Below, piece by piece: positions 17,126 through 21,258 of a DNA stretch of 64,000 bases. A model generated the notes under the pieces. It was not told the origin of the DNA and ran no database searches. It saw only the letters and a list, made by a program, of their open reading frames with translations. The DNA is from Escherichia coli. Lineage in GTDB: Bacteria; Pseudomonadota; Gammaproteobacteria; Enterobacterales; Enterobacteriaceae. The position numbers and the translations under genes were made by a program. The DNA is taken from the NCBI RefSeq assembly GCF_016026235.1, contig NZ_CP065613.1; one strand, given 5' to 3'. Numbering within the stretch: position 1 is the stretch's first letter; each line of letters begins with the position of its first letter.

Positions 17126-17496
17126 AGATCTCCTGCAAGGTTTTCCCTGAGCAAATTTGCCAGACAGAGTAATCCAGCAAATCGTCCGGGGAAACCTTAC
17201 CTGTCGCAAACTGCGACTGATTGGTTAATTGTCGAACATTTAATCGACTGAAACGCTTCAGCTAGGATAAGCGAAACGTGGAATAAAAGGAATGATTGTC
17301 CAGTCAAAGAAAGCAATTATCTGACTTACGTCACGTTTTCAGCCCCGCCCCTGTGGAATTTATTCCACTTTGCAGAATCACGAATAAGCGTAGCAAAATC
17401 TTTTCGTTGTGCCGTCACAAACCCTGACTTATATCAGAATATGACTGATGCAGCGTCGATATTATCCGCAATACGTCCGAGTTTCGGAGTACTCCA

Positions 17497-17928
17497 ATGA
17501 TGACATTGCCCTACCCATATTCTTCCTCCGCACGCTTTTACGCACTGCGCCTCCTCCCTGGGCAGGAAGTTTTTTCCCAGCTACACGCTTTTGCACAGCA
17601 GCATCAACTTCATGCCGCCTGGATTGCAGGCTGTACCGGTAGCCTGACTGACGTCGCCTTGCGCTATGCCGGGCAAGAAGGCACCACGCTCCTGAACGGT
17701 ACATTCGAAGTGATCTCACTAAACGGCACGCTGGAACAGAGTGGTGAGCATCTTCATCTCTGCGTTTCCGATCCACACGGCACGATGCTTGGCGGTCATA
17801 TGATGCCCGGCTGTACCGTGCGGACCACGCTTGAACTGGTGATCGGTAGCCTTGAGGAACTGGCGTTTAGCCGCCAACCTTGCGCGCTTTCTGGTTACGA
17901 CGAGTTGCATATTTCCCCCGTTAAATAA
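17497..17928 (+). CDS. DUF296 / PCC-domain-like protein (about 143 aa), first gene of the accessory cluster
   Basis: Resembles PCC-domain proteins by my recognition; no HMM was run; GGAG 9 nt upstream of ATG. Confidence 0.6.
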   Translation: MMTLPYPYSSSARFYALRLLPGQEVFSQLHAFAQQHQLHAAWIAGCTGSLTDVALRYAGQEGTTLLNGTFEVISLNGTLEQSGEHLHLCVSDPHGTMLGGHMMPGCTVRTTLELVIGSLEELAFSRQPCALSGYDELHISPVK

Positions 17929-17950
17929 CTACTTTCAAAGAGGTTTTCTT

Positions 17951-18529
17951 ATGGCGCGTAGCCACTTTTCCAGTCAGGCACTGGTGTTGATCGTTATATC
18001 TATCGCCATCAATATGATCGGCGGGCAACTGGCCAGCATGGTCAAATTACCTATATTTCTCGACTCCATCGGCACACTTATTAGCGCGGTACTGCTTGGT
18101 CCGGTGATCGGAATGCTGACCGGCTTACTGACCAATTTACTCTGGGGATTGCTGACCGACCCGATCGCCGCCGCATTTGCACCCGTCGCGATGGTCATCG
18201 GCCTGGTCGCCGGTTGGCTGGCGCGAGCGGGTTGGTTTCGCACCCTGCCAAAAGTCGTTGTCAGCGGCGTGATTATTACGCTTGCGGTAACGGTCGTCGC
18301 TGTACCGCTGCGTACTGCGCTGTTCGGCGGTGTCACCGGTAGCGGAGCCGATTTGTTCGTTGCCTGGATGCACTCGATGGGGCAAAACCTGGTGGAGTCG
18401 GTGGCGATTACGGTGATAGGCGCGAACCTGGTCGATAAAATTCTTACAGCGGTGATTGTCTGGCTTTTACTGCGCCAGCTGCCGATTCGCACCACGCGCC
18501 ATTTTCCGGCAATGGCTGCCGTGCGCTAA
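17951..18529 (+). CDS. Small polytopic membrane protein, putative ECF-transporter substrate-capture (S) component
   Basis: ORF trimmed to ATG 17951 (AAGAGG RBS at 17936..17941); about 192 aa, very hydrophobic; sits immediately before the T component. Confidence 0.55.
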   Translation: MARSHFSSQALVLIVISIAINMIGGQLASMVKLPIFLDSIGTLISAVLLGPVIGMLTGLLTNLLWGLLTDPIAAAFAPVAMVIGLVAGWLARAGWFRTLPKVVVSGVIITLAVTVVAVPLRTALFGGVTGSGADLFVAWMHSMGQNLVESVAITVIGANLVDKILTAVIVWLLLRQLPIRTTRHFPAMAAVR

Positions 18530-19237
18530 ATGCATCCATTTACCTCATTAACACTGTGGGCATTGGCGGCCTGCACCACGCTTATCCTGCCCGCGCAGAC
18601 CATTTTGCCGATCTATAGCGCGGCGACCTTTTTCTGCCTTATTGCGCTAAAGGCCACGCGGCGGCGGGCAAAATATGTCGTCTGGCTGATGTTCTCGCTG
18701 GGAGCCGGGCTGTGGCTGGTACACGGTGGCTGGCTACCAGAATGGCTAAGCGGCACGCCACGCTCGCCAGAACGGTGGTCGCATGCTATTACGCTCTGGT
18801 TGCGGATTCTGGCGATTGTTTCAACCTCACAGTTGTGGATGCAGTACGTCCCCGTGCAATGTTTTATTCGCGCTCTGTTTGCTTCTCGCCTGCCGCCAGG
18901 CGTCGCTTATCTGTTTGCCGGGCCGTTATTGGTCGTTGAGCAGTTAAAACGGCAATTAGCGATTATTCATGAAGCGCAGCGTGCCCGCGGCGTGTCGCTG
19001 GATGAGGGCTGGTATCAGCGTTTACGTGCGATGCCCGCGTTAATTATTCCGCTAACACACAATGCGCTTAACGATCTGGCTGTCCGTGGTGCGGCGCTGG
19101 ATATGCGGGCATTTCGGATCCACAACCGACGAACAACGTTGTGGGCACCAGCCGATAGCACCCTACAACGCGTAGCGCGTTACACCATGATCTTGCTGAT
19201 GCTGACAGAATTCGGAGCGTGGATATGGTTACGTTAG
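18530..19237 (+). CDS. ECF-transporter transmembrane (T) component, CbiQ/EcfT-like
   Basis: 235 aa; Ala-Arg-Gly coupling motif in QRARGVS; start abuts the previous stop. Confidence 0.7.
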   Translation: MHPFTSLTLWALAACTTLILPAQTILPIYSAATFFCLIALKATRRRAKYVVWLMFSLGAGLWLVHGGWLPEWLSGTPRSPERWSHAITLWLRILAIVSTSQLWMQYVPVQCFIRALFASRLPPGVAYLFAGPLLVVEQLKRQLAIIHEAQRARGVSLDEGWYQRLRAMPALIIPLTHNALNDLAVRGAALDMRAFRIHNRRTTLWAPADSTLQRVARYTMILLMLTEFGAWIWLR

Positions 19238-19902
19238 AACAGTTCCGTTATTGCCCGACACACTCAACGCATCCTCCGTTCTGTTATGACTTTCACTATG
19301 TCAAACCGGGGATGGTCGCCATCTTTGGTGACAACGGCAGTGGCAAAAGTACGCTGGCACAGCTGATGGCGGGCTGGTATCCGGACTTTCTGCCAGGAGA
19401 GATAACAGGCACGGGGACGCTCCTCGGTACGCCCATTGGGCATCTCCCGCTTAATGAACAATCCGCCACCATCCAGCTCGTCCAGCAATCGCCCTATTTG
19501 CAGCTCTCCGGCTGTACCTTTAGCGTGGAAGAAGAAGTTGCCTTTGGGCCAGAAAATCTGTGTCTTGCTGAAGCAGAGATTATGGCGCGGATTGATGCCG
19601 CCCTGACTCTGACCGAGTGCCAGCCGTTGCGCCATCGTCACCTGGCAACACTCTCCGGTGGAGAGACACAGCGCGTGGTCATCGCCTGCGCCATCGCGAT
19701 GCAGCCAAAGCTCTTAATTCTTGATGAAGCCTTTAGCCGCCTGACTCCGCAGGCCAGCGAAATGCTGTTGCAGCGCTTACAACACTGGGCGTTTGAACGT
19801 GGTTCGCTGATTATTCTTTTTGAACGTCATCGCACACCTTTCCTGAACTACTGCCAGCAAGCGTGGCAATTGCAAAACGGAGCGCTCCAGCCACTATGTT
19901 AA
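19219..19902 (+). CDS. ABC ATPase (ECF A component) with canonical motifs
   Basis: Walker A GDNGSGKST, signature LSGGETQR, Walker B LLILDEA. Confidence 0.8.
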   Translation: MDMVTLEQFRYCPTHSTHPPFCYDFHYVKPGMVAIFGDNGSGKSTLAQLMAGWYPDFLPGEITGTGTLLGTPIGHLPLNEQSATIQLVQQSPYLQLSGCTFSVEEEVAFGPENLCLAEAEIMARIDAALTLTECQPLRHRHLATLSGGETQRVVIACAIAMQPKLLILDEAFSRLTPQASEMLLQRLQHWAFERGSLIILFERHRTPFLNYCQQAWQLQNGALQPLC

Positions 19903-20573
19903 CGTTAAATAAGATATCTTATCGCTGGCCTGGCGCGGCAACGGATTGTCTTTGCGACATTTCTCTGCAACTCAAACAAGGTGAATGGTTGGCGCTGACC
20001 GGCGACAATGGCGCGGGAAAATCGACGCTGTTACGAGTAATGGCAGGTCTTCTTACGCCCACAGCCGGTACGGTTATGCTGCAACAACAGGCGATGAAAA
20101 ACCTGAAAAACCGCCAGCGCGCGGCAAAGGTTGGCGTACTGTTTCAGGAAGCGGAAAACCAACTTTTTCACAGCACCGTCGCTGACGAGATCGCATTTGG
20201 TTTGAAACTGCAAAAATGCCCGGCGGATGAAATCACTCAACGTACCCATGCTGCCCTGCAATGTTGTCAGTTAGCAGACACTGCCAACTCGCACCCGTTG
20301 GATCTGCATAGTGCGCAGCGACGGATGGTCGCCGTCGCCTGCCTGGAAGCACTCTCTCCGCCACTATTACTGCTGGACGAGCCGAGTCGGGATTTTGACG
20401 AAAATTGGTTGAGCGTGTTTGAAAGCTGGCTGGAGAAGTGCCGCCAGCGAGGCACGAACGTGGTAGCAATCAGTCATGACGCCGCATTTACCCGGCGTCA
20501 TTTCTCTCGTGTGGTGCGACTGGAAGATGGTGTAATCAGGAACGTTAATCCACCAGACGATATTCACCCGTAG
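19896..20573 (+). CDS. ABC ATPase (ECF A' component) with degenerate signature motif
   Basis: Walker A GDNGAGKST, Walker B LLLLDEPS, H-loop SHD, but LHSAQRR in place of LSGGQ; ATG overlaps the previous stop (ATGTTAA). Confidence 0.75.
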   Translation: MLTLNKISYRWPGAATDCLCDISLQLKQGEWLALTGDNGAGKSTLLRVMAGLLTPTAGTVMLQQQAMKNLKNRQRAAKVGVLFQEAENQLFHSTVADEIAFGLKLQKCPADEITQRTHAALQCCQLADTANSHPLDLHSAQRRMVAVACLEALSPPLLLLDEPSRDFDENWLSVFESWLEKCRQRGTNVVAISHDAAFTRRHFSRVVRLEDGVIRNVNPPDDIHP

Positions 20574-21258
20574 CGGTCATCATTAAGGTCAAATTTGCAG
20601 GCAGACTCTCTTCCAGCACCCGGCGAACATTCGGCCCGTCGGTACGGTCATAAAAGGCTTCTGCATCTGCCAGCGATACCCCTCCCGCCAGCTTGCGCCC
20701 CACCAGACGCTCCCGCAACGCAGTAGCTGGCGCGTTGATAAAGATCGAGAAATCACAAAATTGCGCAAGCTGGCACCACTTCTCGTCGTCCAGCAACAAC
20801 CAGTTTCCTTCGACGATGACGAGTGGTGCGGTAACGTGCAACGCATCTTCAACAGGATCATGCTTTTGTCGATCGTACTGCGGCCACGTACAATCCCCTT
20901 CCACCACCTGGCGCAGATTTTCCGCCAGTTTCGCAACGTCAAATGTCTCTGGTGCGCCTTTGAAGGGGCGCAATTGATGCGCGTCCAGCCAGCTATTGTA
21001 ATGGTGAAAACCATCCATCGGGAGCGTCTGAATAGCGGGTAGTTCCGGGTCTTGTTGCGCGAGATATTCCCAGAAGGTGGTTAGGGTAGATTTACCCGTC
21101 CCCGGCGGAGCGCAAAGAAAAACTACCGTACGCCGCTGTGGATTTACCGTCTGTAAGGCCGCCAACATGCGCAGCAACGGTTTATGTACATTTTCTATTT
21201 CATCATCAGAGTACTGAGCCTGTACCTTTAGTCCATTCACCGTCAGTTCGATTTTCAC
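20545..21258 (-). CDS. yggC: P-loop kinase-like protein
   Basis: 237 aa, Walker A GTGKST. Confidence 0.9.
   Translation of the reverse strand: MKIELTVNGLKVQAQYSDDEIENVHKPLLRMLAALQTVNPQRRTVVFLCAPPGTGKSTLTTFWEYLAQQDPELPAIQTLPMDGFHHYNSWLDAHQLRPFKGAPETFDVAKLAENLRQVVEGDCTWPQYDRQKHDPVEDALHVTAPLVIVEGNWLLLDDEKWCQLAQFCDFSIFINAPATALRERLVGRKLAGGVSLADAEAFYDRTDGPNVRRVLEESLPANLTLMMTATGEYRLVD

Follow-up and report, generated by a model that had tools for sequence, protein, structure and literature searches.

Two different ATPases of a putative ECF-type importer of Escherichia coli are predicted to form a dimer with one degenerate ATP site

Group II modules, which have two canonical ATP sites, are the basis of the mechanistic models of energy-coupling factor (ECF) transporters. 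Whether a single catalytic site can suffice in this type of importer is the question raised by a five-gene operon in a 64,000-nucleotide stretch of Escherichia coli DNA (NCBI RefSeq assembly GCF_016026235.1, contig NZ_CP065613.1; the whole stretch is referred to as the window). The window covers the fbaA-pgk-epd / yggC-fumE-glpX-yggP-cmtA region of the chromosome, and between epd and yggC it carries five genes on the plus strand, which encode a PCC/DUF296 protein, the S and the T component of an ECF-type transporter and two different ATP-binding cassette (ABC) ATPases, here termed A1 (19225..19902) and A2 (19896..20573). The genes lie in a variable segment (17347..20613, no strand assigned) that matches the description of O-island 119 (OI-119) of enterohaemorrhagic E. 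coli (EHEC) O157:H7. As a whole, the sequence motifs of A1 and A2 are best explained by a dimer with one ATP-binding, poorly hydrolysing site and one catalytic site, a reading that is considered probable while leaving appreciable room for doubt. If it is true, a single catalytic site can suffice in ECF transporters.

The open reading frame of A2 is intact and encodes 225 amino acids, with the start as in the RefSeq annotation of E. coli IAI1 (WP_000956872.1) and with a match to Pfam ABC_tran (PF00005) of 97.8 bits (cutoff 25). A preliminary description of this DNA had stated that A2 keeps Walker A, Walker B and the H-loop and reads LHSAQRR where the ABC signature LSGGQ should be, and both statements hold. 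Walker A (GDNGAGKST; aa 36-44, nt 20001-20027), the Q-loop (LFQEAE; nt 20139-20156), Walker B with the catalytic Glu (LLLLDEP; nt 20364-20384), the D-loop (SRDFD; nt 20385-20399) and a canonical H-loop (AISHD; nt 20466-20480) were located on the plus strand; the Q-loop is conserved in orthologs, and Walker A, Walker B and the H-loop are unchanged across the ortholog clusters. LHSAQRR (aa 137-143, nt 20304-20324) occupies the LSGGQxQ position: in the phmmer alignment to solved ABCB structures 'lhsaqrrmvava' pairs directly with 'lsggqkqriaia', the MAFFT alignment with canonical reference nucleotide-binding domains (NBDs) results in the same placement, and the 24 residues from LHSAQ to the Walker B Asp correspond to canonical spacing. 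Ser2, Gly3 and Gly4 of the signature are all substituted. An LSGGQ equivalent elsewhere in A2 was looked for and no such stretch was seen, the position being fixed by the alignments and the spacing. A frameshift or sequencing error, which had been named as a possible refutation, is ruled out by the same reading in thousands of genomes and across genera.

The deviation, with LH[STA][AG]Q as its general form, is a conserved feature of the family. LH[TSA]AQRRMV is found in 111 of the 120 best ortholog clusters, which comprise Escherichia, Salmonella, Citrobacter, Klebsiella, Atlantibacter and Leclercia and reach down to ~68% identity; the remaining nine are fragments or sequences that a simple offset scan put out of register. 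Among 1.84 billion cluster representatives, searched exhaustively, there were more distant A2 relatives with 42-58% identity that read LHAGQRRMV, and the distant relatives include a natural A1-A2 fusion as well as T-A1-A2 fusions with LNSAE. Asn or Asp takes the place of the signature His in members that are more distant. That the motif stems from the decay of genes on a dispensable accessory island, or from faulty assembly there, is hardly credible in the light of these data, as the identical motif recurs across genera, the open reading frames are intact in all loci examined and the remaining catalytic motifs of A2 are invariant. It is true that the island is absent from 39% of the E. coli genomes including K-12, that deletion of z4268-z4271, the OI-119 genes corresponding to S, T, A1 and A2, left adherence unchanged (PMC7667037), and that within E. 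coli the ratio of nonsynonymous to synonymous substitutions (dN/dS) is higher for A2 than for the other four genes. However, this ratio stays well below 1: it ranges from 0.07 to 0.43 for the five genes within E. coli, with A2 as the fastest (0.34-0.43) yet still constrained, and from 0.05 to 0.14 against Klebsiella and Atlantibacter where it can be estimated, dS being saturated at this distance (for A1 and A2 against Atlantibacter the saturation of NG86 dS leaves no estimate). All five genes of the operon are under purifying selection.

The partner A1 deviates at other positions. A1 has 225 amino acids from the RefSeq start, with a GTG at 19219, two codons upstream, and matches Pfam ABC_tran with 78.1 bits (cutoff 25). 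Its signature is the canonical LSGGETQR (aa 143-150, nt 19651..19674), as had been described, and LSGGE[TSAM]Q is present in 119 of 120 ortholog clusters. Walker A (GDNGSGKST; 19327..19353) is likewise intact, and the Q-loop reads QLVQQSP in 114 of 120 orthologs. Walker B (LLILDEA) is followed by the D-loop FSRLT (both within 19711..19746), so that the catalytic Glu is kept and the D-loop Asp is replaced by Thr; DEA and FSRLT are each found in 120 of 120 ortholog clusters. For comparison, 138 related tandem ATPases with two NBDs in one protein were chosen by similarity to A2, and 134 of their 138 first NBDs have the D-loop Asp. Relative to canonical NBDs, A1 and its orthologs moreover have two insertions that are specific to the family: behind the Walker A helix, WYPDFLPGE (19375-19401) contains five additional residues, and right after the Q-loop there are two more (SGCTF; 19504-19518), the region just after the Q-loop being the normal contact area of the T-component coupling helix.

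A further deviation, which the preliminary description had not covered, is located in the H-loop region of A1 (LFERH; 19816..19830). The MAFFT alignment places …LIILF-E-R-H… of A1 against the canonical …TIVLI-T-H-D…, with a conserved Arg, Arg201, in the column of the switch His. FER is found in ~95 of the 120 A1 ortholog clusters listed. The following residue, His202 in A1, is not conserved; it varies between N, R, H, T, D, K, I and Q and is His in ~25 of 120. In an alternative register suggested by phmmer, His202 is aligned to the switch His after a gap of two residues. Arg201 is favoured as the equivalent of the switch-His position because of the Gly-[ST] anchor, the hydrophobic run, the 'E-H' in related first NBDs and the variability of His202, and the strand boundaries and the Gly-Ser anchor in an AlphaFold2 model agree with this register. 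In either register the A1 family is without a conserved switch His.

In an ABC dimer, each ATP site is composed of Walker A, Walker B, the Q-loop and the H-loop from one NBD, together with the signature from the other (PMC7756269). By this head-to-tail geometry, LHSAQ of A2 and the missing switch His of A1 would fall into the same composite site, the one built on the A1 Walker A (site 1). The suggestion that this site is non-canonical, derived earlier from the A2 signature, thereby gains support from A1. The motifs of the other site (site 2), i.e., Walker A, Walker B and the H-loop of A2 and LSGGE of A1, are canonical with the exception of the Asp to Thr exchange in the A1 D-loop. This division reappears in an alignment of 120 sequences composed of an artificial A1-linker-A2 fusion and natural tandem relatives. 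Invariant columns are G35/G40/K41 and S144/G146 in the A1 part and G291/G296/K297, Q339, D416/E417 and H449 in the A2 part (fusion numbering), which together amount to the whole of site 2 plus the Walker A of A1.

The assignment presupposes that A1 and A2 pair with each other, and indirect support for a normal head-to-tail heterodimer comes from the overlap of the genes, from natural A1-A2 and T-A1-A2 fusions and from a confident model of a fusion of the two. The S stop codon immediately precedes the T start, and the overlap amounts to 13 nt between T and A1 and to 7 nt (ATGTTAA) between A1 and A2, an arrangement that suggests translational coupling and is compatible with a 1:1:1:1 complex. 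The AlphaFold2 model of a single-chain A1-(GGS)10-A2 fusion, built on the alignment of 120 sequences, has a mean pLDDT of 92.6 and a pTM of 0.88, with disorder confined to the linker. Over the full length, the solved structures that match this model best are fused two-NBD chains, first the ATP-bound DppD of Mycobacterium tuberculosis (8wdb_D, TM 0.77) and next the MCR-activation A2 component (8s7v_K, TM 0.76), and the best matches of single NBDs include CbiO (5x40_A), EcfA and FtsE. The CbiO match, together with the homodimeric CbiO of group I ECF systems such as CbiMNQO, might be taken to mean that no A1-A2 heterodimer forms and that homodimers of A1 or A2 serve the transporter or A2 moonlights elsewhere. 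This is judged very improbable: the two genes are kept together and overlap in all loci examined, the order PCC-S-T-A1-A2 is kept in the window and in the compared loci L001-L008 with A1 and A2 as one fused gene in L006, and natural fusions do exist. Moreover, if A2 paired with itself both sites would be degenerate, and in a homodimer of A1 both would lack a switch His.

What site 1 might still be able to do depends on what A1 has retained. The Walker A Lys, the Walker B Asp and Glu (D167/E168, conserved at ≥90% in the 120 relatives) and the Q-loop of A1 stay conserved, suggesting that nucleotide binding is kept at site 1. It could be argued from the two deviating motifs that site 1 binds no nucleotide at all and that A1 is a purely structural partner, but the invariant Walker A, the conserved D167/E168 and QLVQQSP in 114 of 120 orthologs would be hard to explain without nucleotide binding, which makes this alternative highly unlikely.

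Hydrolysis, on the other hand, is predicted to be poor or lost at site 1. Exchange of the switch His for Arg leaves less than 2% of the ATPase activity in HisP (H211R) and in MalK (H192R) (PMC6222333), and by analogy Arg201 of A1 would result in poor hydrolysis. This loss in HisP and MalK also speaks against the main rival view, in which both sites are catalytically competent, with His138 of A2 and Arg201 of A1 as co-evolved replacements that still position the γ-phosphate and with two ATP consumed per cycle. For such an active pair it would be unexpected that distant members have Asn or Asp instead of the signature His and differ in the residue of the switch-His column (Arg for P0135 and P0148, Asp for P0185). 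Furthermore, a working signature is strongly constrained, with Ser2 and Gly4 of the first, partner NBD present in 138 of 138 tandem relatives. The view nevertheless deserves attention, since Walker A, the Asp-Glu of Walker B and the Q-loop are all retained in A1, His138 and Arg201 show conservation instead of drift, and relatives with LHAGQ keep the second Gly. In addition, either single Walker B E-to-Q mutant of the Lactobacillus delbrueckii module abolishes ATPase activity and transport, suggesting that ECF modules need both sites (PMC10368641). On balance, two active sites are considered unlikely.

The preferred reading, one ATP-binding and poorly hydrolysing site next to one catalytic site, would translate into the following mechanism. 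The five translationally coupled genes would encode a dedicated ECF-type importer (S, T, A1 and A2) together with a PCC/DUF296 regulator, and the A1/A2 heterodimer would be placed beneath the two coupling helices of T. Site 2, with Walker A, the Walker B Glu162 and the H-loop His194 of A2 and closed by LSGGE of A1, would be the consensus catalytic site. Site 1, with Lys41 and Glu168 of A1 and Arg201 in place of the switch His, would be closed by LHSAQ of A2 and would bind ATP that is hydrolysed slowly or not at all. A single hydrolysis event per turnover, at site 2, would thus drive the cycle, and the role of the ATP at site 1 would be that of a long-lived latch or an allosteric element. A latch of bound ATP was proposed for TM287/288 (PMC3971661). 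As a speculation, the latch at site 1 may compensate for the missing C-terminal dimerisation domains.

The absence of these domains had been noted before and was corroborated by comparison with solved structures. Solved EcfA1 and EcfA2 chains comprise 279-300 amino acids with a C-terminal domain, whereas A1 and A2 of E. coli have 225 each. Alignments of A2 to the solved EcfA chains stop at approximately residue 222-250, which together with the length shows that a C-terminal domain of ~50-60 amino acids is absent in A1 and A2. In a sister lineage (locus L005, 5172-6822), A1 has 281 and A2 273 amino acids with C-terminal extensions, and the pair has the same kind of deviant motifs, LHAGQ and FER. 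The two events, disappearance of the C-terminal domain and site degeneration, are thus separable.

Several observations weigh against the proposed asymmetry or parts of it. A1 retains the catalytic Glu, a residue that many classical degenerate sites have lost (PMC7756269, PMC7544095), so that some activity may remain at site 1. The replacing residues His138 and Arg201 are conserved and polar and could contact the γ-phosphate, and close relatives read LHAGQ with the second Gly kept. The exchange of the D-loop Asp for Thr in A1 touches site 2, which is supposed to be the consensus site. The assignment of Arg201 rather than His202 to the switch-His column was made by alignment and secondary structure, and phmmer gave the other register. 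The combination of deviant motifs and C-terminal extensions in L005 weakens the idea that the latch compensates for the missing domains. Finally, the counts for the 138 tandem ATPases ignore phylogeny, and these proteins were picked by their similarity to A2.

With this limit, the tandem ATPases reveal a wider pattern of the same polarity. Counts were made by column on a MAFFT --add alignment, and fixed offsets from Walker B were dropped since they misplace H-loops. The first signature is canonical in 128 of the 138 proteins and the second in just 35, i.e., 103 of 138 (75%) have a non-canonical second signature. Conversely, the switch His is missing from 33 first NBDs and from a single second NBD. 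Both deviations tend to coincide, as the second signature is non-canonical in 31 of the 33 proteins that lack the switch His (Fisher p = 0.003, not corrected for phylogeny). Most of the 138 deviate mildly, with LS[RK]GQ and the His kept as E-H. Three sampled tandem ATPases adjoin EcfT (CbiQ) genes, two of these three also S-component genes, and one sampled protein is encoded in a PCC-S-T-AA cluster. These tandem ECF ATPases, uncharacterised proteins of 450-620 amino acids from metagenomes and genomes, are the closest sequence relatives beyond the orthologs and share the polarity of the asymmetry. Compared to them, the E. coli family represents the extreme end, with three signature residues (Ser2, Gly3 and Gly4), the switch His and the D-loop Asp all lost, and it differs by having the NBDs on separate polypeptides without linker or extension. 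It might be that one-site catalysis is normal in a large class of dedicated ECF transporters whose two ATPases are different or fused, with OI-119 as an extreme member; this generalisation is put forward tentatively and is at present rather doubtful. If true, these transporters would use one ATP per cycle with the second site permanently latched by nucleotide, unlike the group II modules behind the current ECF model, and in the E. coli family the latch could couple the state of the transporter to the co-encoded PCC/LmiA regulator.

The relation to known systems was analysed first for group II ECF modules, for which EcfA-EcfA'-EcfT of L. delbrueckii, L. brevis and Thermotoga maritima were compared (5jsz, 8bmr, 4huq, 4mki, 4hlu). 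Common to these modules and the E. coli system are an S component of PF12822, a T component with two X-Arg-X motifs and two different ATPases. In the solved structures, EcfA1 and EcfA2 both have LSGGQ, an xLD D-loop and an [ST]H H-loop, whereas in E. coli A2 reads LHSAQ and A1 reads FER and FSRLT. Moreover, the E. coli module is dedicated, i.e., encoded in an operon with its own S component, and linked to a PCC regulator, unlike group II modules. The best NCBIfam matches of both ATPases are ECF ATPase models (TIGR04520 and TIGR04521, ECF_ATPase_1/2, and TIGR01166, cbiO), with scores far below the respective cutoffs of 330, 315 and 211.8 bits for A2 (150.3, 145.8 and 130.0 bits) as well as for A1 (101.9, 115.9 and 107.4 bits).

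Degenerate ATP sites as such are well known, and reviews describe them as frequent in exporters (PMC3971661). In asymmetric exporters such as TM287/288, TAP1/2, ABCC1, CFTR and Pdr5, a deviant signature and a deviant H-loop of the other NBD meet in one site (PMC3971661, PMC7756269); in Pdr5 these are LNVEQ and a His to Tyr exchange in the H-loop. Like the predicted E. coli dimer, the exporters have two different NBDs and a second site of consensus type. They differ in that their transmembrane domains are fused and the catalytic Glu of Walker B is usually lost, whereas A1 keeps this Glu and the E. coli system is a type III (ECF) importer. Among importers, one site was judged degenerate from sequence in RbsA and NupO, type II importers of Bacillus subtilis with fused NBDs (PMC11466899). 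These represent a different transporter type and fold, and they lack the second Walker A lysine and, in the case of NupO, also the acidic residues of Walker B, whereas Walker A and Walker B are intact in A1 and A2. In a literature search no paper on a degenerate ATP site in any ECF transporter was found, which is absence of evidence only. What is new here is thus probably that an importer of the ECF type has an inherently asymmetric dimer of ATPases, judged from its sequence, and not the degenerate site itself. The system is present in a genetically tractable organism and stands within a wider tandem set of the same polarity, and would thereby allow the role of the second site to be asked.

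The locus is also of interest in the context of virulence, as the operon corresponds to OI-119 of EHEC, whose first gene, lmiA, activates virulence genes of the locus of enterocyte effacement (LEE). OI-119 of EHEC O157:H7 was described as a segment of 3.12 kb with five genes, z4267 (lmiA, DUF296), the hypotheticals z4268 and z4269 and the ABC ATP-binding proteins z4270 and z4271 (PMC7667037). LmiA is a DUF296 protein with His85, His87 and His101 that is induced by PhoP at low Mg2+ and activates ler (PMC7667037). In the window, the PCC/DUF296 protein (17497..17928, 143 aa; Pfam PF03479, 101 bits) likewise has His at positions 85, 87 and 101 and is the likely ortholog of LmiA/Z4267. An O157:H7 genome carries the cluster at the same location with 98.7% identity. 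A1 is Z4270-like and A2 would be the ortholog of Z4271, the equation with Z4267-Z4271 being based on the published description and this one O157:H7 genome. The Salmonella ortholog of the PCC protein has been solved (2HX0/2NMU).

ECF S-T-A-A clusters that begin with the PCC/DUF296 gene also occur in unrelated genomic contexts (L004 3606-6687, L005 3387-6822, L006 919-4192 and L012 1645-5198), including a lineage with a fused ATPase that is merely 35% identical to A2. In all three clusters whose PCC protein was aligned (L004-L006), the His triad (GEHLH…GGH) is kept. Because the PCC gene heads ECF clusters in unrelated contexts and its His triad is conserved, the 'virulence regulator' LmiA is probably a cognate regulator or partner of this transporter family.

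The S component (17951..18529, 192 aa) is annotated in RefSeq as 'ECF transporter S component' and matches Pfam PF12822 with 35.3 bits (cutoff 30.7). Against the NCBIfam model of the CD3073-family S component (NF045596) it scores 136.2 bits at a cutoff of 180, and a literature search returned no paper on the 'CD3073' family, which is again absence of evidence only. S is the best-conserved protein of the module, with 66-90% identity where T has 48-79%. The T component (18530..19237, 235 aa) is assigned by its RefSeq annotation and reaches 22.6 bits with Pfam CbiQ (cutoff 25). Its two coupling-helix X-Arg-X motifs, QRARGV (18977-18994) and AVRGAA (19079-19096), are conserved in orthologs, the first as ARG and the second as VRG, ARS, IRS or TRA; the role of such motifs in the T component of ECF transporters was described before (PMC10368641). 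A search for riboswitches and other Rfam elements between 17000 and 20800 returned none at E values up to 1.

Finally, the distribution of the island bears on its origin. Homology to K-12 ends at 17346 and is picked up again at 20614; K-12 carries 132 unrelated bp in between, its epd gene directly adjoins yggC and the cluster is absent. The island region is found in 3319 of 5426 complete E. coli genomes (61%) with 95.5-99.9% identity. Directly beside epd, the five-gene cluster is also found in Atlantibacter (L002 3595-6684) and Klebsiella (L003 3606-6657). Since it stands beside epd in other enterobacterial genera, the cluster appears to have occupied this position ancestrally and to have been lost from some E. 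coli lineages; for OI-119, a recent acquisition by horizontal transfer has been suggested instead (PMC7667037).

The left flank of the island is 98.9% identical to K-12 and the right flank (yggC-glpX) just 92.8%. A2 and yggC, which is encoded on the minus strand, are convergent and overlap by 29 bp, with 20545-20613 forming the 3' end of yggC, and the right boundary of the island lies inside the last ~23 codons of this gene. For this final stretch of yggC no DNA homology is detectable between strains with and without the island, and yggC is annotated with 237 amino acids in both. Further downstream, yggP (22748-24025) is an intact open reading frame of 425 amino acids in the window and carries a frameshift according to the annotation of E. 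coli IAI1 (L001).

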